DNA of 10,938 nt from Candidatus Hermodarchaeota archaeon (GCA_048885925.1 JBHLLG010000095.1:1-10938); one strand, 5' to 3'; positions 219 through 10,938 are shown, numbered from the stretch's first letter. The notes: a model not told the origin generated them from the sequence alone. Numbers and translations are program-made.

Positions 219-357
219 TATTCTAAAAAGATATCAAAAAACTATTTTCTTATCAATAAACTAATAAAAATAAATAATAGTAAAAACTAAATATTAAAAT
301 AAAGATTTTTGAAAACCAAAATTTAATTTTATTTTAAAAAATTAAGTGGAAAAAATT

Positions 358-1134
358 ATGCCGAGAGCAGGGAGAAGAGCACTGGAAAGAGAATATGATC
401 CCCTTGATGTATATAGTAAATGGGATAAAATTGGAGCCAAGACGATCTATTATGGCTTTATACTTGGTACAGTAGTAGTTGTATTAGGTGTATGGGTAGT
501 AATTATCTGGTTATTGGTTGGTGGAGGCTTTTGGGAATTTTGGAAAGGTATAGATCTTGGATTTCAAATTGCCATTATTGCTGGAGCAATTACTGGTCAT
601 TTATTCTTATTAGTCCTCTTTTATACACTGTTCCGTGGAGGAATGGTGCGATTATGCCAGATAATGTATAAAGATCGGTTAATTGCGAGTAAATGGGCCG
701 ATTATTACGGTTTACGTATGCTTGTAGGTGTTGCTCTTTTAGGGCTTTATATTACCCTTATAAGTGTTGTTATAGGTTTACTACCATCAACCTTTTTAGA
801 TGTAGTAAAGAAAGTATGGGCTTGGCAGGTTGAAACATTCAATGCGGGGTTATGGATTATGTGGGTAGGAGCACTTATATTTCTCTTTGTAATAATTATC
901 TTTCTTGGACTTATGATATGGAATAAAGGTGTATTTTGGGTTCTTTCACATGTCAAAGAAATTGAAGAGGAAATGGAAGTTGAGGAAAATATTAAGAAAG
1001 AAGCCATAAAGAATTCAGATGAAAGAACACTCAGAGATATTTACAAGAAAGAAACGGGACAAAAAGCAATACATCGAGGTAGAGAAACCCGTGGATATAA
1101 AGAGTGGAAACAAAAGCTAGGAATAAAGGAATAA
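358..1134 (+). CDS. Uncharacterised integral membrane protein (about 4 TM helices, charged C-terminal tail)
   Basis: ORF of 258 aa from ATG 358 (262 aa from GTG 346). Four long hydrophobic segments, then an acidic helical stretch and the motif YKKETGQKAIHRGRETRGYKEW. Confidence 0.85.
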   Translation: MPRAGRRALEREYDPLDVYSKWDKIGAKTIYYGFILGTVVVVLGVWVVIIWLLVGGGFWEFWKGIDLGFQIAIIAGAITGHLFLLVLFYTLFRGGMVRLCQIMYKDRLIASKWADYYGLRMLVGVALLGLYITLISVVIGLLPSTFLDVVKKVWAWQVETFNAGLWIMWVGALIFLFVIIIFLGLMIWNKGVFWVLSHVKEIEEEMEVEENIKKEAIKNSDERTLRDIYKKETGQKAIHRGRETRGYKEWKQKLGIKE

Positions 1135-1178: not shown

Positions 1179-2111
1179 TTATCTTCTCATCATTCGTGGA
1201 TTTCTGAATAAATCCATTTCTTGTTTTGGCATTTTGTAATCAGTGGTTGCTGTCTTTTTCATTTGTTTATAAAACTTCTTAATCATCTTTTCTGCATCGT
1301 GCATAAAATTACAGATGCATCCAAATAATATCATATAGAGTACAAAACTTTTGTCTTTTGCATAGGCTTCATCAGAAATCTGAATTTCAAAATTTTTCTG
1401 TACTCTTTGACCGTCTACTCGAGCAACTTTTTGATCACCGATATAGATCCAGTAATTTCTACCTGGACCTACAATACCCTTTGCCATAACTACTTGGAGT
1501 TTATCATCTTTTTGTTCTGGAAGAAGTGGCCAATTCCATCTTGTTCCCAATAATCTCCAACCTCTTACTACTTTAGCTAAATGGATCATTCTTGGATTCT
1601 GCATAATAAAAACAGGGGCAGGGTGTCTGATTTCATAACTTTGGATTAACGAGTGAGACACACTAAATTCAAATCCACCTTTAAAGGTTCCCCCTTTGGG
1701 TTGTGCATCCATTGATTCTTCCATAATGGTAAAAATACGACATACTAGACGTTTTTCTTCAAGAGGTTTTTCCTCCCAATCATCCTTACTAAACGCAATA
1801 ATGTACTTTTTCTCTCCATCTTCTTCTACTACTCCTTCAATATCGAAATTCTTAGAAAACCAACGTGTTTTAGCTTGGTATTTAAGCTGTTGATGAACTC
1901 CCAATTCTTCATCATGTAAACGAGTCCGCCAAAAATTTACTTTAATTTTTTTATACACTGCTTTTTTAGGTGGTACAGGAGCTTCTGGAGTTGGTTCTTT
2001 TTTTGATGGCTTGGAAACTTTCTTTTTTACCGGTTTAGCTCTTGCTTTTTCTCGAGGTTTAGCTTCCTTTTCCATTTTTTCTAATTCTTCTACTGGATCT
2101 TCTTCTGACAT
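1179..2111 (-). CDS. Hypothetical protein, probable LURP-one-related/Tubby-C/scramblase-like beta-barrel with a disordered K/E/P-rich N-terminus
   Basis: 310-aa ORF. The C-terminal pattern AKG...NYWIYIGDQKVARVD...NFEIQI...KSFVLYMILFGCICNF resembles the last strands plus buried hydrophobic helix of LOR/scramblase proteins (recognised by eye). The CDS is firm; the fold is tentative. Confidence 0.7.
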   Translation of the reverse strand: MSEEDPVEELEKMEKEAKPREKARAKPVKKKVSKPSKKEPTPEAPVPPKKAVYKKIKVNFWRTRLHDEELGVHQQLKYQAKTRWFSKNFDIEGVVEEDGEKKYIIAFSKDDWEEKPLEEKRLVCRIFTIMEESMDAQPKGGTFKGGFEFSVSHSLIQSYEIRHPAPVFIMQNPRMIHLAKVVRGWRLLGTRWNWPLLPEQKDDKLQVVMAKGIVGPGRNYWIYIGDQKVARVDGQRVQKNFEIQISDEAYAKDKSFVLYMILFGCICNFMHDAEKMIKKFYKQMKKTATTDYKMPKQEMDLFRNPRMMRR

Positions 2112-2330: not shown

Positions 2331-4508
2331 TCACTTTTTGAGTTTATGGTTCTTATCAATCTTTTCCAGCTTTTTCCCACGCTTAAGATAGTTCCTAATT
2401 AAAACAATAGAAGTAACACCAACAACGGAACTAATCGTTATTGCGGATATAATAATTATGGCTTTTAAAGCAAGAGGTAATCGAACAACAATATATACAT
2501 TGTTAGATAAAGTAAAGCCCATTTCATTATAAGCTGCCACCGCAAAATAGTATTTTCCGTTGGATAATCCAGTTACATGAAATGATGTCTCTGTGGTTAG
2601 ATTAGCTAAGCATGTGAGACTTCCATTTATAGAGGTGATTTGATTTGTATAACGAAATACAGAATAATTATCCGCTCTCTCAGATTCATCCCAATCTAGA
2701 TCAAAAGTACCGTCAGTGTCTGTTGGATCAGCATTATCAATCAAATTAAAAGGCTCTGGTCCAGGTACACTAACGTAAGTATAATTAGAAGACATTGTTT
2801 CACCAGTTTCATTATATGCAACGACCCTAAAATAATAATTTCCTTGTTTCAAAGACACTGAAAACGGAGTTGTTGCTGTTTGATAAGCGAGTAAGTCAAA
2901 TTTCTTACTAATATATGTAATTGGACTATCGGACATGTATATAGAATAATTTTCTGCACCCTCAGATTTCGTCCACGTTAGATTAAATTTACCATCATAA
3001 TCAGGACTCTCAGCGGTGCAATTTAAATAGAAGTCCCCAGGTGGATCTGGTGGATCAGTAAGAAGACCGTTAATTCCCCAGTACGGAAGCCTATAAGAAC
3101 CTGTCCAGAGAGAGTCGGGATACGCTGCAGGGTATTGAGAAAAAACCTTTACAACGCGAAGAACCACCTTAGTTCCATCGATATACTTCCAATGACAAAA
3201 TAAACTATAGCCGAAAGGATAACCATATATCAAATCATGGTTTAAAGGATTAAAAGCGGTTAATCCACCAACCCCAATAAAAGGATTGGTATTATTGATT
3301 TTTTCTAAAGCTGCTACAGTTACATCCGGATCAAAGGTTTGAGTCTCATTTACCGTTTTTACTAATAATTTAATAGCATCAAATGCACCTGCAGCGGTAA
3401 AATATGGATCAATACCATATTCATTGAAATAACTCGCAAAAAAGGGAATTGTCAATGGTGTTTTTGACGTATTATAGAAATATTGAAGGTTTACCACAAA
3501 TCGAAACGCACCTTCACTATAATCCCAATCTGTATACAAACTTCCAAAAGGACTGAAACTAAGGACTGCACATTGAGGTTTTACTTGTTGATATGCTTGA
3601 AACAACAATTTTCCAGTATCAGGACGACCAAACATTGAATAGACTTCCGAGATTCCAGCCGATTCAATAATATTCCAATAATTTATATAATCTGTAAGTG
3701 TAGCTCCAGTTGGGATTATAATGTCTTCTTCAACACCTATACCATATGAAGGAAGAGTATTCTTGATTTCGATAGCGAAAAAACCGAAAAGATCTATATC
3801 TTCACGTATTATTGCTGTCTTGTTTATTATGCCGGCATCTATACTATTTAAATAATAAACACCCATAATTGCGTAATTTAAATAATCCCATAATATACCA
3901 GTTAGATTAGCGGGTGAGATCCTGAAAAAATACTTATATTTCTCATAATTGCTTAGAACTCTTTCACATATTGTATTAGCGCCATCTCCGGTTCCCAGAA
4001 ATGGAATTTTGTTATCCATTACTACATCTTGATAATCACGAAGCTCAGAGCCACCAATAATGAAATGAGGGTGGTGTTCTTTTATGATTTTTTTAGCGGC
4101 TGCAATTGGTTCTGATACTGATCCATATACTTCATTGGTATTTTCTGCTACAAGGCCTACATAATAATTATTTCCATTTATTATGATACCCCCTTCCTCA
4201 TTAACTTCTTTTGCTGCGAGATATGCCCCCTTCCAAGCATGGACGCCTGTTATATAATTTAAATCGTCTAATACTCCAACTTTCATTATCCGGTTTAACG
4301 GTACAGTTTCTGGACCACCTGGAACGATATAATCATGTGAGGGATAAAGGTCAACACTGAAATAATATACACCAGCAATAATACTCGCGATTGTAATAAC
4401 ACCTATAATCCCACCAATGAGGAGTGACTTCTTTTGAGCTCTTAGCCTTTGGATTTTTAGAAATTTCTTTTTTTCATTAGGAATCTTATCGCTGATCTTC
4501 ACTCTCAT
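2331..4508 (-). CDS. Membrane-anchored type-1 periplasmic-binding-fold protein (LivJ/branched-chain amino acid ABC substrate-binding-like) with two FN3-like domains and a C-terminal TM; copy A
   Basis: Basic N-tail and TM (LLIGGIIGVITIASIIAGVYYF). LivJ-family motifs MKVGVL, GAYLAAKEVNEEGGI, KIPFL, YFFRISP, AFDAIKLL. PPDPPG linker. Two repeats of LxW...AxNYS...GxYYFxVxAYNExG. TM plus Lys-rich tail. ATG at 4508 is shared by both copies; TTG at 4520 is the alternative start. Confidence 0.85.
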   Translation of the reverse strand: MRVKISDKIPNEKKKFLKIQRLRAQKKSLLIGGIIGVITIASIIAGVYYFSVDLYPSHDYIVPGGPETVPLNRIMKVGVLDDLNYITGVHAWKGAYLAAKEVNEEGGIIINGNNYYVGLVAENTNEVYGSVSEPIAAAKKIIKEHHPHFIIGGSELRDYQDVVMDNKIPFLGTGDGANTICERVLSNYEKYKYFFRISPANLTGILWDYLNYAIMGVYYLNSIDAGIINKTAIIREDIDLFGFFAIEIKNTLPSYGIGVEEDIIIPTGATLTDYINYWNIIESAGISEVYSMFGRPDTGKLLFQAYQQVKPQCAVLSFSPFGSLYTDWDYSEGAFRFVVNLQYFYNTSKTPLTIPFFASYFNEYGIDPYFTAAGAFDAIKLLVKTVNETQTFDPDVTVAALEKINNTNPFIGVGGLTAFNPLNHDLIYGYPFGYSLFCHWKYIDGTKVVLRVVKVFSQYPAAYPDSLWTGSYRLPYWGINGLLTDPPDPPGDFYLNCTAESPDYDGKFNLTWTKSEGAENYSIYMSDSPITYISKKFDLLAYQTATTPFSVSLKQGNYYFRVVAYNETGETMSSNYTYVSVPGPEPFNLIDNADPTDTDGTFDLDWDESERADNYSVFRYTNQITSINGSLTCLANLTTETSFHVTGLSNGKYYFAVAAYNEMGFTLSNNVYIVVRLPLALKAIIIISAITISSVVGVTSIVLIRNYLKRGKKLEKIDKNHKLKK

Positions 4509-4529
4509 CAATATTTTCAAGGTGATTTT

Positions 4530-4548
4530 TATTATAATTGTTATAATT
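4530..4548 (-). promoter_or_regulatory. Putative TATA box(es) for the binding-protein gene, copy A
   Basis: Minus strand reads ataattataacaattataata. TTATAATA is centred about 26 nt upstream of ATG 4508, consistent with a leaderless transcript. Identical in copy B. The AT-rich background lowers confidence. Confidence 0.4.
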
Positions 4549-4792
4549 ATCAGTATTTTTATGCAAAAATGAATTAAATAAAAAATAAGCAGGAAAAGGT
4601 AAAACTGGCCATATTTTTATATGTACCATCATTGATTTCACATAAATTGGTTTTTAAAATACAATTAAGATAACCTAAAATTTAAGCATATTGTAGAATA
4701 TAGTAGAATGGTTAGGTATGTCAACCCTATGATCAGAAATACCTCAGCCACATTTAATTTTCAATTGATTAATAATTCATTGTTGTCGTTAA

Positions 4793-6352
4793 TTATTCGA
4801 GTTCAATTTTATTATTGCATGACCAGCATGTTTCGCCTTTCTTCTTTAAGACAGTAGCACATTTCATGCAATAATAAGTTTCACACTTAGGACAAATATA
4901 TACTGCCCCAACAATTTTTCCTCTATGTACAACACATGTATGATACTCTTTTTCTACACTCACTTCAGCTTCAGTTTTTCGTAATTCTTCTAATTCCTGA
5001 GAGCTTAATGTGGTTCTGGAAATTAATTTTTCTCTTGAGGATCTTTTTCTAAAAACATACAATCCAACAGCGACCATCGCACCGGCTATAGAAATCACGA
5101 TTATCATGACGATTTCAGGAGGAAATCCATTTTTATCTATGCACTTATTATTTTTAAATTTATTTCCTTCACATTCTTCTTCTTCTAGAGCGACGAAATT
5201 GTCACATACATCGTTGTCATATACATAATTATAATTAGATTTTACTAAATATAGACCATACTTAGTGTTATTGTTTATCTTATTTTCCATAATGTCTGTA
5301 TAATTAGAATTTTCCAAATAAATTCCAATTGCATTATCAATTATGTTGTTATTAGTGATATTATTAATCTCAGAATTCATTAACAAAATGCCAGTATCTA
5401 TATTAGAACTTATATTGTTTTCAAAAAATTGGTTATATCCTTTATCCTCTAAATGAATACCATATTCATTTCTACTAATGTTATTTTTAGATGTCATAAT
5501 ACCTGAACAACTATCCATTTCTACCCCTGAGTAATCGTTGTTATATATTTCATTATTATATAAAAAGTCCTCTAAACCTTCAGTTATTAATATTCCAGAT
5601 TTATCATTATTATATATTTTATTATTTAAAATGTTGTTTCTCCGAGTAAAGACGAGTCTTATACCGTTGTTATAGTTATTATATATTGAATTATAAGCAA
5701 TAATATTGGTGCCCGGATTATTAGCTAAATAAATGCCATCATTATTATTGCTTATATTATTCAATGTAATTATATGATTCTCACCTATTGACGTCTTCAG
5801 CCCATAACTAGTGTTATTATTTATGATATTTCCAGATATGTTATTATTTTTACCCGATTTTAATAATATACCGTTTCCTTTATTGTTGGAGCAGTTATTT
5901 TTAATTAATTTTCCATTGTTTACAAACATTAACTTAATTCCTCCATTTTCATCCAAATCAGGTCCAGAATTAGATAGCGTACAATTTCTAATTATAAAAT
6001 AATCATTTGAATCTCTAATCTCGATACAATTGCCCAGGCCTTGACCATCAATTGTAATATTTTCAATAATATATGGATTTTCTAAAGTTCCATTACCTCC
6101 ACCATACCAGGTTTGATTTTCAAACCACGTCCAATTATGAGCTCCAATTCCAGTCCAATCACCATCAATAAAAATGGGTGTTCCGGTAAGATTCCAAAAA
6201 CCTGAAGATTTTAGATTCTTTTCTGTCTGATTCTCAGAATTTATAAGCATTTCTATTGTAGTTAAATTAGAATATAGATTAACCCTGTTTGTTAATAATG
6301 AGATAAAAGTGAGTGTAACTAAGATAATGGTAATTTTCTTAGGTAAATTCAT
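4793..6352 (-). CDS. NosD-like right-handed parallel beta-helix surface protein with TM helix and cytoplasmic RING-like zinc finger; copy A
   Basis: N-terminal signal/anchor. Cap motif GNGTLENPYIIENITIDG...YFIIRNCT. Many ~22-24 aa repeats of GIxLxxxxxNxIxxNxIxNN. TM at about 5051-5113 followed by RKR. Eight-ligand zinc motif at 4817-4936. Confidence 0.9.
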   Translation of the reverse strand: MNLPKKITIILVTLTFISLLTNRVNLYSNLTTIEMLINSENQTEKNLKSSGFWNLTGTPIFIDGDWTGIGAHNWTWFENQTWYGGGNGTLENPYIIENITIDGQGLGNCIEIRDSNDYFIIRNCTLSNSGPDLDENGGIKLMFVNNGKLIKNNCSNNKGNGILLKSGKNNNISGNIINNNTSYGLKTSIGENHIITLNNISNNNDGIYLANNPGTNIIAYNSIYNNYNNGIRLVFTRRNNILNNKIYNNDKSGILITEGLEDFLYNNEIYNNDYSGVEMDSCSGIMTSKNNISRNEYGIHLEDKGYNQFFENNISSNIDTGILLMNSEINNITNNNIIDNAIGIYLENSNYTDIMENKINNNTKYGLYLVKSNYNYVYDNDVCDNFVALEEEECEGNKFKNNKCIDKNGFPPEIVMIIVISIAGAMVAVGLYVFRKRSSREKLISRTTLSSQELEELRKTEAEVSVEKEYHTCVVHRGKIVGAVYICPKCETYYCMKCATVLKKKGETCWSCNNKIELE

Positions 6353-6378
6353 GAAAATCTCAATTTCTAGTAAGAAAA

Positions 6379-6394
6379 ATTTATAATTTCATTT
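6379..6394 (-). promoter_or_regulatory. Putative BRE/TATA promoter of beta-helix gene A
   Basis: Minus strand aaatgaaa-TTATAAAT, with the TATA element 27-34 nt upstream of ATG 6352. Preserved in copy B even though the adjacent coding sequence has diverged. Confidence 0.55.
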
Positions 6395-6475
6395 ACATAT
6401 TTGCAGAAACTTAAGATCATCTTATTATCCTAGAATTAATAAATTTAATCGAATCAATTGCCTTTAATAAAAAAA

Positions 6476-6625
6476 TCAAAAAATAATTCGAAAAAAGATT
6501 GTATCATTAATTGAATCTAAAATTTCTCTCAATCTCTCTTTTTTAATAATATTTATTACTATTGCAATGATTGTTAATCCTCCAAAATTCATAATAAGAA
6601 GAATAAATGGCTAAAGGTTACCAGA
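6476..6625 (-). pseudogene. Possible remnant of a surface-protein C-terminal membrane anchor (or a 38-aa small ORF at 6476-6592)
   Basis: Minus-strand translation SGNL*PFILLIMNFGGLTIIAIVINIIKKERLREILDS...: a hydrophobic stretch followed by KKxR, interrupted by TAG at 6611-6613. Confidence 0.3.
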
Positions 6626-6667
6626 TTCACGATTTAAAGCTATATAGATGTTAAATTTTTAAAAATA

Positions 6668-8875
6668 TCACTTTTTAAGTTTATGTTTTTTATCAACCTT
6701 TTCCAGCTTTTTCTCACGCTTAAGATAGTTTCTAATTAAGACAATAGAACTAACACCAACAACGGAACTAATCGTTATGGCAGATATAATAATTATGAGC
6801 TTTATATCCATAGGTAATCGAACAACAATATCCCTATTGTTAGATAAGGTATATCCCATCTCATTATAGGCAGCAACCGCAAAATAGTATCTTCCGGTGG
6901 ATAATCCAGTTACATGAAATGATGTCTCTGTGGTTAGATTAGCTAAGCATGTGAGACTTCCATTTATAGAAGTGATTTTACTTTTATAATGATATACAGA
7001 ATAATTATCGGCTCTCTCAGATTCATCCCAATCTAGATCAAAAGTACCGTCAGTGTCTGTTCCAACAGTATTATCACGCAAATCAAAAGGCTCTGGTCCA
7101 GGTATACTAACGTAAATATCATTATAAGAATAAGACATAGTTTCACCAGTTTCATTATATGCGACAACCCTAAAATAATACTCTCCTTTTTTCAAAGACA
7201 TTGAAAAAGGAGATGTTGCATTTTGATAAGCAAGTAAGTCAAATTTCTTACTAATATATTTAATTGGACTATCGGACATGTATATAGAATAATTATCTGC
7301 GCCCGTAGAATTAGTCCAAGTCAGATTAAATTCTCCATCATAATCATAAGGAGTCTCAGCAGTACTGTTCATTGTGAAGTTTCCCGGTGGCTGAGGCGGA
7401 TCAGTGAGAAGACCGTTAATCCCCCAGTACGGAAGCCTTAGAGAACCTGTTGCGATTTCTTCGGGATACCCCTTATACCCCACCATTCCTTCCTCAAAGG
7501 GAACAATTGATTCATGCGGAACAACTTCCCTAGAACCATCGATATATTTCCATTGACAGAATAAAGCATACGAATAAGGCCAGCCATATACCAAATCATG
7601 TTTGTTATCGAAAGCAAGATTACCACCTGGCCCAACAACATAATTAGTACTATTAATTTTTTCTAAAGTGGATACAGTTATATCAGGATCAAATGTTTGG
7701 GTCTCATTGACTGTTTGAACTAATAATTTAACAGCTCCATAAGAACCTACACCTATATAATATGGGTCAATACCGTATTCATTAACATAACGATTAAAGA
7801 AGGGAATTGTTAATGGAGTTTTTGATGTATTATAGGTACCTTGTAATAAAATCTCATACTGACACGCTCCTTCATCATAATCCCAATCAGTATTAAGTTG
7901 GCCAAAGGAACTTAAACTCACAATTAAACATTTAGGTTGTAATTGTTGGTATGTTTGAGACATTAATTTTCCGAAAAGAGGATTAATAAAAAACGTCGAA
8001 CAGACTACTTGAACTCCCTTAGATTCAATTTGATTCCAAAAATTGATAAAATCTGCTTCTGTAACATTATATGGTAATATTTCATCTACTACAACCGATA
8101 TATTACTTTTAGGAAACTCCTGATAGATTAAATTAGCACAAAACGTAGATATAATATTGTCATCGCGGAGTATGGCGGTCTTGTTTACGATTCCAGCATC
8201 TATACTGTTTAGATAATAATAAAGGTAAACAATGTAACTTAAATAATCAGAATATATACAGGCAATATTATTGGGTGAGATTCTAAAAAAATATTTATAT
8301 TTCTCATAATTATCCAGTACTTTTTGACAAAAGTTCCATCCAGCTGCTCCAGTTCCTAGAAATGGTATTTTTTCTTCCATGATCACATCTAAATAATTAT
8401 AGAGAAATTCACTATAACCTCCAGTAATGAAATGAGGGTGGTGTTCTTTTATGATTTTTTTAGCGGAGGCGTTTCCTTCTAACACTGTTCCATATACTTC
8501 ATTGGTATTTTCTGCTACAAGTCCTACATAATAATTATTTCCATTTATTATAATACCCCCTTCCTCATTAACTTCTTTTGCTGCGAGATATGCCCCCTTC
8601 CAAGCATGATCTCCCGTAAAATGATTAAGATCGTCTAATACTCCAATCTTTATTATCCGGTTTGACGGTACAGTTGGTGGACCACCTGGAACGATATAAT
8701 CATGTGAGGGATAAAGGTCAACACTGAAATAATATACACCAGCAATAATACCCGCGATTGTAATAACCCCTATAATCCCACCAATGAGGAGTGACTTCTT
8801 TTGAGCTCTTAACCTTCGGATTTTTAGAAATTTCTTTTTTTCATTAGGAATCTTATCGCTGATCTTCACTCTCAT
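6668..8875 (-). CDS. Membrane-anchored type-1 periplasmic-binding-fold protein with two FN3-like domains and a C-terminal TM; copy B
   Basis: Same architecture and motifs as 2331-4508 (IKIGVL, GAYLAAKEVNEEGGI, YFFRISP, PPQPPG, two FN3-like repeats, TM, basic tail). The ORF track starts it at 8920; ATG 8875 is the start equivalent to copy A. Confidence 0.85.
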   Translation of the reverse strand: MRVKISDKIPNEKKKFLKIRRLRAQKKSLLIGGIIGVITIAGIIAGVYYFSVDLYPSHDYIVPGGPPTVPSNRIIKIGVLDDLNHFTGDHAWKGAYLAAKEVNEEGGIIINGNNYYVGLVAENTNEVYGTVLEGNASAKKIIKEHHPHFITGGYSEFLYNYLDVIMEEKIPFLGTGAAGWNFCQKVLDNYEKYKYFFRISPNNIACIYSDYLSYIVYLYYYLNSIDAGIVNKTAILRDDNIISTFCANLIYQEFPKSNISVVVDEILPYNVTEADFINFWNQIESKGVQVVCSTFFINPLFGKLMSQTYQQLQPKCLIVSLSSFGQLNTDWDYDEGACQYEILLQGTYNTSKTPLTIPFFNRYVNEYGIDPYYIGVGSYGAVKLLVQTVNETQTFDPDITVSTLEKINSTNYVVGPGGNLAFDNKHDLVYGWPYSYALFCQWKYIDGSREVVPHESIVPFEEGMVGYKGYPEEIATGSLRLPYWGINGLLTDPPQPPGNFTMNSTAETPYDYDGEFNLTWTNSTGADNYSIYMSDSPIKYISKKFDLLAYQNATSPFSMSLKKGEYYFRVVAYNETGETMSYSYNDIYVSIPGPEPFDLRDNTVGTDTDGTFDLDWDESERADNYSVYHYKSKITSINGSLTCLANLTTETSFHVTGLSTGRYYFAVAAYNEMGYTLSNNRDIVVRLPMDIKLIIIISAITISSVVGVSSIVLIRNYLKREKKLEKVDKKHKLKK

Positions 8876-8896
8876 CAACATTTTCAAGGTAATTTT

Positions 8897-8915
8897 TATT
8901 ATAATTGTTATAATT
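8897..8915 (-). promoter_or_regulatory. Putative TATA box(es) for the binding-protein gene, copy B
   Basis: Same sequence and spacing as 4530-4548, relative to ATG 8875. Confidence 0.4.
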
Positions 8916-9156
8916 ATCAATATTTCTATGCAAAAATGAACTAAATAAAAAATAAGCAGGAAAAGGTAAAACTAGCCATATTTTTATATGTACCCTCATT
9001 GATTTCACATAAATTGGTTTTCAAAATACAATTAAGATAACCTAAAATTTAAGGATATCGTAGAATATAGTAGAGTGATTAGGTATGTCAACCCTATGAT
9101 CAGAAATACTTCAGCCACATTTAATTTTCAATTGATTAATAATTTATTGTTGTTAA

Positions 9157-10707
9157 TTATTTGAGTTCAATTTTATTATGGCATGCCCAGCATGTTTCGC
9201 CTTTCTTCTTTAATACAGTAGCACATTTCATACAATAATAAGTCTCACATTTGGGGCATAAATATATCGCACCAACAATTTTGCCTCTATGTACAATACA
9301 GACATGATGTTCTTTTTCTACACTCACTTCAGCTTCAGTTTTTTGTAATTCTTCTAATTCCTGAGAACTTAATATACTTTTAGAAATTAATCTTTTTTTT
9401 GAGGTTTTTCTTCTAAAAACAATCATCCCTACAGCGAATATTATACCGGCAATAGAAATCACGATTATCACGACGATTTCAGGAGGAAATCCATTTTTAT
9501 CTATGCACCAATTATTATTGTTAAATGTATTTCCTTCACATTCTACTTCTTCTAGAGGCTTGAAATTGTCACATACCTCGTTGTTAGATATAGAATTATA
9601 ATTAGATTTTACTAAATATAGACCCCAATTAGTGTTATTGTTTATGTTATTTTCCATAATGTAATTACTATTAGAATTTTCAAAATAAATTCCAATTTCA
9701 TTATTATTTACATTATTTTTAATGATATTATTATTAATAGAGTTTAATATCACAATTCCAGTATCTCTATTGAAACTCACAGTGTTGTCAAAAATTGTAT
9801 TGGAATAATACCGCTCCAAATAAATTCCATATTCATTAGAACTAATACTATTATTTGAGATTATAATACCTTGAGTATTATCTATTTCTACTCCCGAGTA
9901 ATTGTTGTTATATATTTCATTATTACTGATAATAATATCAATGCATTGATTGACATATATTCCAGAATTGTTATTATTATGAATGCTATTATTTAAAATA
10001 TTGGTCTTACGAGTTCCGTTTAATATTATACCATTATTATAATTATTATTTATTATATTATCGGAGATTGTATTATTCGGTTCACCCGTTAAATAAATAC
10101 CATTACTGTTATGGCTAATATTATTTAATGTAAATATATTATGGTAGCTTATTATTGATTTTAATCCACATTGATCGTTGCTATTTATAAGGTTTCCAGA
10201 AATGTTGATATGCATACCATGATATAAGAATATCCCGTTGGCTTTATTGTTTGAGCAGGTGTTATTAATTAATTTTCCATTGTCAACCTCCAGTAATTTG
10301 ATTCCTCCATCAGCATCCGAAACAGATCCAGAATTAGATAACGTACAATTTCTAATTATAAAATATTTACTGGAATATCTAATCTCGATACAACTCCCCA
10401 ACCCTTGGCCATCAATCCATACATTTTCGATGATGTAAGGATCGTTCCAAGTGCCCGATCCAGAACACCAAGGGTAGATTGAAGCTGTATAAGTCCAGTT
10501 TTTAGTTGAAAGCCTATCGTCGATTAATATTTGGCTTCCTGTAAGATTCCAATAGCCCGAAGATTTCGGAATTTTCTCTATTTGGTCCTTAGAATTTGCA
10601 TTTGTTTTTATTTTAATTGATTTAGAATTTAGATTAACCCTATTAATCAATAATGAGAGAAAAATGAGAGTAATTAGGATAATGGTAATTTTTTTAGTTG
10701 AATTCAT
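9157..10707 (-). CDS. NosD-like right-handed parallel beta-helix surface protein with TM helix and cytoplasmic RING-like zinc finger; copy B
   Basis: Signal/anchor, cap motif WCSGSGTWNDPYIIEN, Asn-ladder repeats, TM IVVIIVISIAGIIFAVGMIVF followed by RRK, and zinc motif CIVH...CPKC...CMKC...CWAC at 9181-9300. Confidence 0.9.
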   Translation of the reverse strand: MNSTKKITIILITLIFLSLLINRVNLNSKSIKIKTNANSKDQIEKIPKSSGYWNLTGSQILIDDRLSTKNWTYTASIYPWCSGSGTWNDPYIIENVWIDGQGLGSCIEIRYSSKYFIIRNCTLSNSGSVSDADGGIKLLEVDNGKLINNTCSNNKANGIFLYHGMHINISGNLINSNDQCGLKSIISYHNIFTLNNISHNSNGIYLTGEPNNTISDNIINNNYNNGIILNGTRKTNILNNSIHNNNNSGIYVNQCIDIIISNNEIYNNNYSGVEIDNTQGIIISNNSISSNEYGIYLERYYSNTIFDNTVSFNRDTGIVILNSINNNIIKNNVNNNEIGIYFENSNSNYIMENNINNNTNWGLYLVKSNYNSISNNEVCDNFKPLEEVECEGNTFNNNNWCIDKNGFPPEIVVIIVISIAGIIFAVGMIVFRRKTSKKRLISKSILSSQELEELQKTEAEVSVEKEHHVCIVHRGKIVGAIYLCPKCETYYCMKCATVLKKKGETCWACHNKIELK

Positions 10708-10731
10708 GAAAATCTCAATTTCTAATTAAAA

Positions 10732-10746
10732 ATTTATAATTTCATT
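10732..10746 (-). promoter_or_regulatory. Putative BRE/TATA promoter of beta-helix gene B
   Basis: Minus strand aatgaaa-TTATAAAT, with the TATA element 25-32 nt upstream of ATG 10707, matching copy A. Confidence 0.55.
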
Positions 10747-10833
10747 AACATATTTGTAGAAGCTTAAGTTAATGATATTAGCCCTAAATTTAAAAATTTA
10801 ATGAGTGATGGATAAAAAGTATTTTTTTATTGA

Positions 10834-10938
10834 TTATTGGAGTTCAATCTCATTTTTACATACTCCACAAGTCTCACCTTTATTCTTCATAATAGTAGCA
10901 CATTCCATGCAATAATAACTCTCACACTTTGGACATAA
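10834..10938 (-). CDS. 3' end of a third gene carrying the same RING-like zinc-finger tail (truncated by the window edge; not in the ORF track)
   Basis: Manual translation LCPKCESYYCMECATIMKNKGETCGVCKNEIELQ*, clearly paralogous to LCPKCETYYCMKCATVLKKKGETCWACHNKIELK*. Confidence 0.88.
   Translation of the reverse strand, partial: LCPKCESYYCMECATIMKNKGETCGVCKNEIELQ

Follow-up and report, generated by a model that had tools for sequence, protein, structure and literature searches.

Two tandem copies of a two-gene module

The DNA analysed here (hereafter the window) is the complete 10,938-bp contig C95 (JBHLLG010000095.1) from the 3.9 Mb, 181-contig genome of a Candidatus Hermodarchaeota archaeon (GCA_048885925.1; source genome G000), and close homologues of its proteins carry the labels Promethearchaeota or Promethearchaeia, i.e., Lokiarchaeia-type Asgard archaea. 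It contains two tandem copies of a gene pair, consisting of a gene for a beta-helix protein with a transmembrane (TM) helix and a zinc finger (BH) followed by a gene for a LivJ-type binding domain with two FN3 domains and a TM helix (PBP), plus the cut tail of a third finger gene. All of them are minus-strand genes; read in the direction of transcription, the series is the cut finger tail, BH_B, PBP_B, BH_A and PBP_A, followed by orf310. As proposed in the original prediction, made by a model from the sequence alone, the two co-oriented genes were duplicated together: PBP_A and PBP_B are 71% identical (519/730) and BH_A and BH_B 62% identical (324/520), in both cases far beyond chance. Four other, independent studies yielded short contigs that cover the window and span the PBP_B/BH_A junction (e.g., 6064-6778), so an assembly artefact does not account for the tandem arrangement.

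PBP_A (open reading frame [ORF] call at 2331-4520, minus strand, 729 aa) matches Peripla_BP_6 (E = 4.6e-15) and fn3 (8.9e-6) in Pfam, and its true start is probably at 4508. The binding domain occupies residues 76-470 (3111-4295), the FN3 pair residues 491-690 (2451-3050), the C-terminal TM helix approximately residues 687-708 (2397-2462) and a Lys-rich tail residues 709-729 (2334-2396). PBP_B (6668-8920, minus strand, 750 aa; Peripla_BP_6, 8.5e-17; fn3, 1e-4; TM scan) comprises a Lys-rich N-terminal tail, a TM helix, the LivJ-type or Venus-flytrap domain (residues 87-490; 7451-8662), two FN3 domains, a second TM helix and a short Lys-rich C-terminal tail; homology with PBP_A makes the Met of MRVKISDK near 8875 its probable true start. 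Hydropathy scanning placed a TM helix at both ends of the PBPs, with Lys-rich tails at the N end (9 K/31) and the C end (8 K/22), in line with the short basic tails noticed in the original prediction for the partner with the small-molecule-binding fold.

The other partner had been described as combining a beta-helix ectodomain with a conserved zinc finger, and this is also what we found. BH_A (ORF call at 4793-6352, minus strand, 519 aa) matches Pfam Beta_helix (2.2e-38) and NosD, and BH_B (9157-10707, minus strand, 516 aa) matches Beta_helix (3.5e-62), NosD (7.9e-37) and the finger HMM. Hydropathy scanning of both proteins indicated an N-terminal signal or anchor, a single TM helix near residue 414 (about residues 414-434 in BH_A; 5051-5113) and a C-terminal finger of 47 residues, located at residues 471-517 in BH_A (4802-4942) and 468-514 in BH_B (9166-9306). 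From its N-terminus on, BH_B has a signal or anchor, a right-handed beta-helix as ectodomain, the TM helix and, after a helical linker, the RING-type finger; the linker measures ~40 residues in the BH proteins. Each of the four full proteins contains 13-18 N-glycosylation sequons. Public automatic annotation names genes of these two kinds "ABC transporter substrate-binding protein" and "NosD", labels that mask the relationship of the two genes.

A RING-type finger at the cytoplasmic end

The finger follows the spacing C-x2-[HC]-x11-12-C-x2-C-x4-[CH]-x2-C-x11-C-x2-C, with Cys or His in all eight positions in 14/14 aligned family members and with the Cys columns kept in 43/43 long representatives. 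In an AlphaFold2 (AF2) model of the BH_A tail the pLDDT is about 90 over the finger, and nearly all of the top Foldseek matches of this model were RING/U-box E3 ligases (probability 0.9-1.0, rmsd 2-3 Å over ~50 columns), including TRAF3, RING1B, MDM2, TRIM21, RNF4, RNF8 and RNF125. Likewise, a profile made from the 14 family members and searched against PDB sequences retrieved the RINGs of RNF4 (2.6e-4), MDM4 (0.0017) and MDM2 (0.0064), and also the TFIIH p44 finger, while members of the finger family match Pfam zf-C3HC4_3 with E-values of 6.7e-4 and 3.5e-9. A probable RING fold is supported by the predicted model and a RING sequence signal by these profiles, in keeping with the RING-like finger, possibly with a role in ubiquitination, of the original prediction.

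In the alignment with RNF4 and MDM2, the near-invariant Trp of the fingers borne by beta-helix proteins falls on the Pro of C-P-x-C, and a Val or Ile lies directly after the first Cys of the finger; both are putative E2-binding positions. Fingers borne by PBPs instead have the sequence CMEC, and R, Q or G where those of beta-helix proteins have Trp. The third finger-tailed gene of the window, of which the 3′ end of 34 codons remains before the contig end (10834-10938, minus strand), also has CMEC and lacks a Trp before the last Cys pair, and its tail is closest (79% identity) to the tails of PBP-FN3-TM-finger fusions (L004/L034, L068) and not to those of beta-helix proteins. The anticipated zinc-finger tail upstream of the pair thus exists, although by comparison of tails it is probably of the PBP-borne type; we rejected its assignment as another beta-helix gene on the basis of these best matches.

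The source genome has 15 ORFs with this finger. At E <= 1e-3 the family has 1130 cluster representatives (50% identity), and at <= 1e-10 it has 844; the finger is almost always C-terminal, and the named members are Promethearchaeota. The ectodomains of 43 long representatives were scanned, and 19 of them are beta-helices, with propellers, PKD, Big, LTD and other domains in the rest. A query with the finger tail against 60 related genomes was positive in 35/35 genomes of the genus and 4/4 of one sister family, and in 0/14 of another.

Members of the finger family beside a ubiquitin cluster

Contigs C41 and C120 of the source genome overlap by exactly 77 bases, which makes two finger ORFs the halves of one gene. 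The joined gene, whose multi-TM product ends in the finger, adjoins a small ubiquitin-like (Ubl) gene whose product ends in GG-NL, beyond which come genes with UQ_con (E2), ThiF (E1), JAB and AAA/CN-hydrolase domains. In two other species (L006, L018) the JAB-E1-E2-Ubl cluster is also flanked by finger-tailed membrane genes. The source genome contains three E2 genes above the Pfam cut-off. Contig C120 additionally carries, right beside the ubiquitin cluster, a gene for a 463-aa PBP followed 35 nt on by an FG-GAP-TM-finger gene.

This gene neighbourhood suggests a possible connection of the finger family with ubiquitination and has a parallel in Caldiarchaeum subterraneum, where the small RING protein (srfp) of the ubiquitin operon is a working E3 (PMC5654768). 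There, a small two-zinc RING-type finger is encoded beside ubiquitin, E1, E2 and JAB/Rpn11 genes, and the finger paralogue of the source genome occupies the same position. In the window, by contrast, the finger ends a single-pass surface protein on its cytoplasmic side, and the ectodomain of that protein is a beta-helix; the operon-side paralogue of the Asgard genome is a multi-TM membrane protein.

A separate observation concerns a type of protein of 790-880 aa whose N-terminal part has a P-loop (weak AAA_22 match) and whose C-terminal domain is CN_hydrolase (C41:18485-20860, equal to L021:6486-8861; L001:1637-4258; L003:11502-14132; L006:2031-4673; L018:3778-6420). It heads the JAB-E1-E2-Ubl cluster. 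A paralogue lies beside beta-helix-finger/PBP pairs in several species, and in L006 a relative of this protein ends in the same finger.

Recurrence of the gene pair and its fused forms

Relatives were clustered at 90% identity across all loci before adjacency was counted. Outside of the window, a PBP-family gene is immediately adjacent, on the same strand, in 12/12 non-redundant beta-helix-TM-finger clusters, including all of the six (6/6) fetched from the finger side. The latter came from metagenome contigs scanned with the beta-helix-finger alignment and without reference to PBPs: of 80 loci, eight contained a beta-helix-TM-finger gene and one an FG-GAP-TM-finger gene, and an adjacent PBP was found in 0/71 of the remaining loci, which hold only finger-less beta-helix genes. 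Three of five FG-GAP-finger genes also have an adjacent PBP. The pair is therefore not confined to the locus of the window, a restriction that would have refuted the original prediction. A beta-helix-finger gene followed by a PBP gene is present in the related genomes G005, G029, G008, G009, G031 and G033, and across species and metagenomes both gene orders occur; in the source genome itself, contigs C174 and C103 (77-base overlap) carry a PBP-FN3 gene, then a beta-helix-finger gene and then the start of another PBP.

Fusions of the two partners point in the same direction. They come from the same genus or phylum. Single chains with the architecture PBP-FN3-beta-helix-TM-TIR occur in L008, L009, L010 and L013 (TIR_2 in Pfam, E = 1.4e-11 to 9.3e-17), and their beta-helix part aligns with the beta-helix and juxtamembrane segment of BH_A at 40-48% identity over 130-215 residues. 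By this homology, the two genes of the window appear to correspond to two halves of the single-chain TIR proteins, with the finger in place of TIR. TIR_2 had no match anywhere in the source genome. There are also four non-redundant cases of PBP-FN3-TM-finger fusions (L004/L034, L063, L064 and L068), and in all four the finger-bearing PBP-FN3-TM protein is the neighbour of a beta-helix-finger gene. Taken as comparative evidence, the adjacency and the fused forms indicate a functional link between the two genes that is well supported.

We also observed single chains of 1830 aa (L020/L042/L044) with SBP_bac_5 (oligopeptide-type), beta-helix and Peripla_BP_6 domains, a TM helix and TIR, so that one membrane protein ending in TIR unites binding domains of two distinct folds.

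The binding proteins of the window group apart from transport proteins

In profile searches against solved structures, the PBPs of the window matched 4gnr, LivK (1usg) and urea-binding proteins, whereas PBP_A alone against PDB sequences retrieved only titin FN3 domains. There is no permease gene in the window, as had been noticed from the start. Among five Peripla_BP_6 matches in the source genome there is only one LivH/LivM pair (C3:40196-42036), located directly after its own PBP gene of 496 aa and before two ATPase genes; this single LivHMGF operon, found in a search recommended with the original prediction, does not lack a binding protein, and the PBPs of the window are therefore orphans with respect to transport genes.

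A total of 32 named loci was collected with the PBP-domain profile. Ten of them are PBP-LivHM(GF) operons of the classic kind; their PBPs measure 459-484 aa, have an N-terminal anchor only and lack the FN3 stalk and C-terminal TM helix of those in the window. Single-chain PBP-FN3-beta-helix-TM-TIR proteins are found in six of the 32 and beta-helix-PBP-TM-TIR proteins in four (plus one cut locus), while three of the 32 contain the beta-helix-finger gene followed by PBP-FN3, four a PBP-FN3-TM or longer PBP protein with no visible partner, and four are cut or unclear.

A quick maximum-likelihood tree (IQ-TREE, SH-aLRT support) of 46 PBP domains included a clade of 29 rows (support of 100) with the PBPs of the window, made up of all 12 TIR-fused, one finger-fused, six beta-helix-finger-adjacent and ten FN3-TM rows, and of 0/10 of the ABC-linked (ATP-binding cassette) rows. 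The window proteins, then, do not group with those of complete ABC operons, which was the alternative raised with the original prediction. The seven finger-associated rows form a clade of their own (97). Two ABC-linked rows are the sister group of the 29-row clade, and this receptor-like clade thus looks like an offshoot of the binding proteins of transport. The two copies have different sisters, PBP_A pairing with the PBP of another species (100) and PBP_B with that of a third one (88), so the A/B duplication predates those species; the identities of the BH proteins across species roughly track the same pattern. The 463-aa PBP of contig C120 falls on the ABC side of the tree.

Also on the ABC side are the PBPs of a further locus (L017; G022:C7:868000-887900) with a tandem of four PBP genes in which FN3 precedes the binding domain and one protein has two binding domains; no LivHM, finger or TIR gene is nearby. 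Upstream of the LivHMGF operon of the source genome we noted a very long frame (C3:30002-38248). Frames of this kind reach 1500-2700 aa or more, show dozens of hydrophobic segments in a crude hydropathy scan and precede the canonical PBP-LivHMGF operon in many of these genomes (also L043, L045, L049, L051, L054 and L058).

Gene conversion between the two copies

Nucleotide identity between the two modules is a mosaic, with 57-70% in the ectodomain cores and 90-96% over the end of the BH gene, the spacer and codons 1-150 of the PBP gene; the non-coding BH-to-PBP spacer itself (4521-4792 for BH_A-PBP_A and 8921-9156, the second copy of the conserved non-coding block, for BH_B-PBP_B; both on the minus strand) is 95-96% identical between copies. 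Synonymous divergence (dS) between A and B is 0.03-0.06 for PBP residues 1-70, 0-0.07 for the second FN3 domain (PBP residues 578-655) and 0.02 for BH residues 361-400, versus 0.5-1.3 in the PBP core. These low values in coding blocks, together with the near-identical spacer, show that the conserved blocks are recent gene-conversion tracts and not the product of protein-level constraint; constraint was considered as the cause of the conserved PBP N-terminus and second FN3 domain and was rejected, as dS is about 0. The finger alone shows clear purifying selection, with dS of 0.53 and nonsynonymous divergence (dN) of 0.06 (dN/dS 0.11). In the ectodomain cores dN/dS is 0.2-0.5, with few windows near 1 and no strong sign of diversifying selection. 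Hence, the contrast that the original prediction drew between variable ectodomains and conserved TM-proximal and cytoplasmic parts holds as an identity profile, but its origin is in part gene conversion, with only the finger under clear purifying selection.

A block of ~150 nt of the spacer is also present upstream of the PBP gene in two other species (L001:8489-8694; L002:7720-7877) and is ~80% identical to the other-species spacer, where the flanking proteins reach 52-56% only. We found no convincing RNA structure in this block (consensus energy of -3.0 kcal/mol) and no Rfam family; within the genome, its 18-base core is confined to the two window copies. The conserved block is probably a promoter, operator or leader of the PBP gene.

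A candidate split receptor-type RING ligase

We interpret the window as tandem copies of a two-gene module for a split receptor-type RING ligase, an interpretation to which we give about an even chance of being right. The PBP, as a membrane-anchored flytrap on an FN3 stalk, would be the extracellular sensor, and the BH protein a membrane-tethered, E3-ligase-like output that would use the E1, E2 and ubiquitin genes of the genome. The flytrap would bind a small molecule outside the cell; the FN3 stalk might stand next to the beta-helix rod, with the two proteins associated in the membrane, such that ligand-driven closure of the flytrap could move the finger, cluster it or change its activity. 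The finger could then recruit one of the three E2s and ubiquitylate nearby cytoplasmic lysines, the Lys-rich tails of the partner being candidate targets, for turnover or signalling. Tandem amplification and gene conversion may diversify the ectodomains for different ligands on a common chassis. MDM2-MDMX is a RING-RING heterodimer, and, where both partners bear a finger, a similar heterodimer of an E2-binding (Trp) and a non-binding RING is conceivable. Partner contact, ligand and E3 activity of the finger are all proposals of ours. The pair of sensor and signalling co-receptor envisaged in the original prediction is favoured by the genetic coupling of the genes, evident from the 12/12 adjacency, the fusions and the tree; in view of the gene conversion, the conservation of the cytoplasmic parts argues for it less strongly.

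Several observations weigh against this interpretation. The finger family is very large and, since the same tail is found on many unrelated ectodomains, it could instead be a general tag for sorting, anchoring or turnover. The small size of the finger leaves its Foldseek matches with weak E-values (0.015 or higher), and the finger of the window itself had no Pfam RING match, its best relevant one being to an ANCHR-like B-box (0.01). Profile alignment of the binding domain to LivK (1usg) gave no reliable map of amino-acid-binding residues. Some PBP-FN3-TM genes have no visible finger or TIR partner (L033, L052, L007), the pair has been found so far in one genus-level group only, and the pattern of conservation between A and B is in part a product of gene conversion. 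Moreover, the genes of the pair are set apart by spacers of 236-315 nt and probably have their own promoters, so they do not form a tight operon.

The wide use of the same tail on unrelated ectodomains, hundreds of them adhesin-like, also keeps alive a reading that we consider doubtful, though a serious competitor: the window would be a variable surface coat or recognition module, for adhesion or as virus decoys or receptors, that is amplified and shuffled and whose RING-type tail sorts or removes the proteins without conveying a signal. Tandem amplification, mosaic conversion tracts, divergent ectodomain cores and the 13-18 sequons per protein are all as expected from such a coat, as is the variation between species in copy number and architecture at the syntenic locus. 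It does not, however, explain why a small-molecule-binding fold is the constant partner (12/12) or why the single-chain relatives end in TIR, and the dN/dS of 0.2-0.5 in the ectodomain cores, with few windows near 1, does not favour it.

We regard as unlikely that the window serves nutrient capture, with anchored PBPs feeding the single LivHMGF transporter, beta-helix proteins that are unrelated surface enzymes or adhesins and a finger that is a mere cytoplasmic anchor. One permease can serve several binding proteins, as LivHMGF does LivJ and LivK; besides, the fold is that of HAAT-family ABC binding proteins (4gnr, LivK 1usg, urea-binding proteins), public annotation is as ABC substrate-binding proteins, and the 463-aa PBP of contig C120 groups with the ABC side. 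In addition, the main glycoprotein found in the cultured Asgard archaeon P. syntrophicum is a binding protein anchored by N- and C-terminal helices (PMC11284389). Against this, the PBPs of the window belong to a clade without ABC-linked members and differ from the ten ABC-linked PBPs in the FN3 stalk and C-terminal TM helix, their closest relatives are fused to TM and TIR or to TM and a RING-type finger, which have no role in transport, and adjacency to a finger gene is seen in 12/12.

Chance co-duplication of two unrelated neighbours, which would suffice within the window alone, where the duplication unit simply holds both genes, is highly improbable and was rejected, as the finger-side scan and the 12/12 adjacency contradict it and further species and metagenomes contain the pair too, with either gene first or with the parts fused.

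Comparison with known systems and implications

The proposed split RING ligase has partial counterparts in several known systems. PA-TM-RING proteins, such as RNF43/ZNRF3 and GRAIL, are transmembrane RING E3 ligases. In the receptor-type E3 MEGF8-MOSMO-MGRN1, extracellular events control the ubiquitylation of membrane-protein tails, and it shares with the window an ectodomain, one TM helix, a helical linker, a cytoplasmic RING and a second TM partner (PMC12458338). In the window, however, the ectodomain is a beta-helix, the partner is a bacterial-type binding protein and the host is an archaeon, and the likeness beyond the RING is one of layout.

The PBPs share fold and family with LivJ/LivK (HAAT, Peripla_BP_6), as seen in Pfam and profile matches, but are without an adjacent permease and have an FN3 stalk, a C-terminal TM helix, a separate clade and TIR- or finger-fused relatives. 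They resemble in arrangement the bacterial transducers that depend on binding proteins, in which a sensor binding protein acts with a membrane transducer from an adjacent gene. In LuxP-LuxQ and TorT-TorS, a solute-binding protein senses for a membrane-spanning transducer encoded beside it, with a kinase as output; likewise, in GlnH-GlnX-PknG the binding protein is said to be the sensor for a separate membrane transducer from a neighbouring gene, also with kinase output. In contrast, the output in the window would be a RING-type finger (TIR in relatives), and the binding protein is anchored at both ends.

Class C G protein-coupled receptors and natriuretic-peptide/ANF receptors couple a LivJ-like flytrap through the membrane to a cytoplasmic effector, and some relatives of the window PBPs give weak ANF_receptor matches (3.1e-6, 7.2e-5); nevertheless, the window proteins lack 7TM, cyclase or kinase domains and coupling would be in trans. 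Toll-like/IL-1 receptors consist of an ectodomain, TM and TIR, and the single-chain relatives of the pair have an ectodomain, one TM helix and a cytoplasmic TIR, although the ectodomains are unrelated and the source genome lacks a TIR_2 match. We did not find, in open-access full text, a description of Asgard transmembrane RING and binding-protein pairs or of binding-protein-TM-TIR proteins, which supplementary gene tables could list. The novel elements are a binding-protein partner that stays constant, the existence of fused forms and an effector that is exchanged for TIR.

No known prokaryotes are more closely related to eukaryotes than the Asgard archaea, which have ubiquitin, E1, E2, RING and ESCRT genes, and we know of no identified targets of their ubiquitin system. 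A module tying an extracellular ligand-binding domain to a membrane RING finger is a concrete candidate for an input and a substrate set of that system, and the sister forms with TIR in place of the finger add to the case for a receptor-like module. The pair looks like a precursor, in two parts, of those eukaryotic receptors that are coupled to the ubiquitin system, and both Venus-flytrap receptors and receptor-type E3 ligases regulating surface proteins by ubiquitylation may predate eukaryotes. We extend our interpretation only tentatively, and on balance with more doubt than conviction, to the general proposition that this Asgard group has true transmembrane receptors, with a bacterial-type Venus-flytrap sensor, an FN3/beta-helix stalk and an exchangeable TIR or RING E3 effector, and that in the two-chain form of the window a ligand outside controls ubiquitylation inside. 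If true, this would point to a prokaryotic origin of receptor-type E3 ligases and of the ubiquitin-controlled turnover of surface receptors. The proteins are small enough for direct tests.

Other features of the window

No Rfam family and no tRNA were found in a scan of the window, and no PADLOC model of anti-phage defence matched any of the five proteins examined (BH_A, PBP_A, orf310 and two TIR fusions; 0 families). The remaining genes are orf310 (1179-2111, minus strand), without Pfam match, and orf262 (346-1134, plus strand), which codes for a four-TM membrane protein by hydropathy and is the second conserved flanking gene. The product of orf310 is cytoplasmic, with a Lys/Pro-rich N-terminus, ~12 predicted beta-strands and then a long hydrophobic helix. 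An Atlas search gave a weak lead to Tubby/LOR-like proteins (0.88), with a poor AF2 model (mean pLDDT 47.7). Relatives of orf310 are 68-83% identical, and orf310 and the four-TM gene flank the PBP genes in every syntenic locus seen (L003, L031, L033, L034, L052 and L059).

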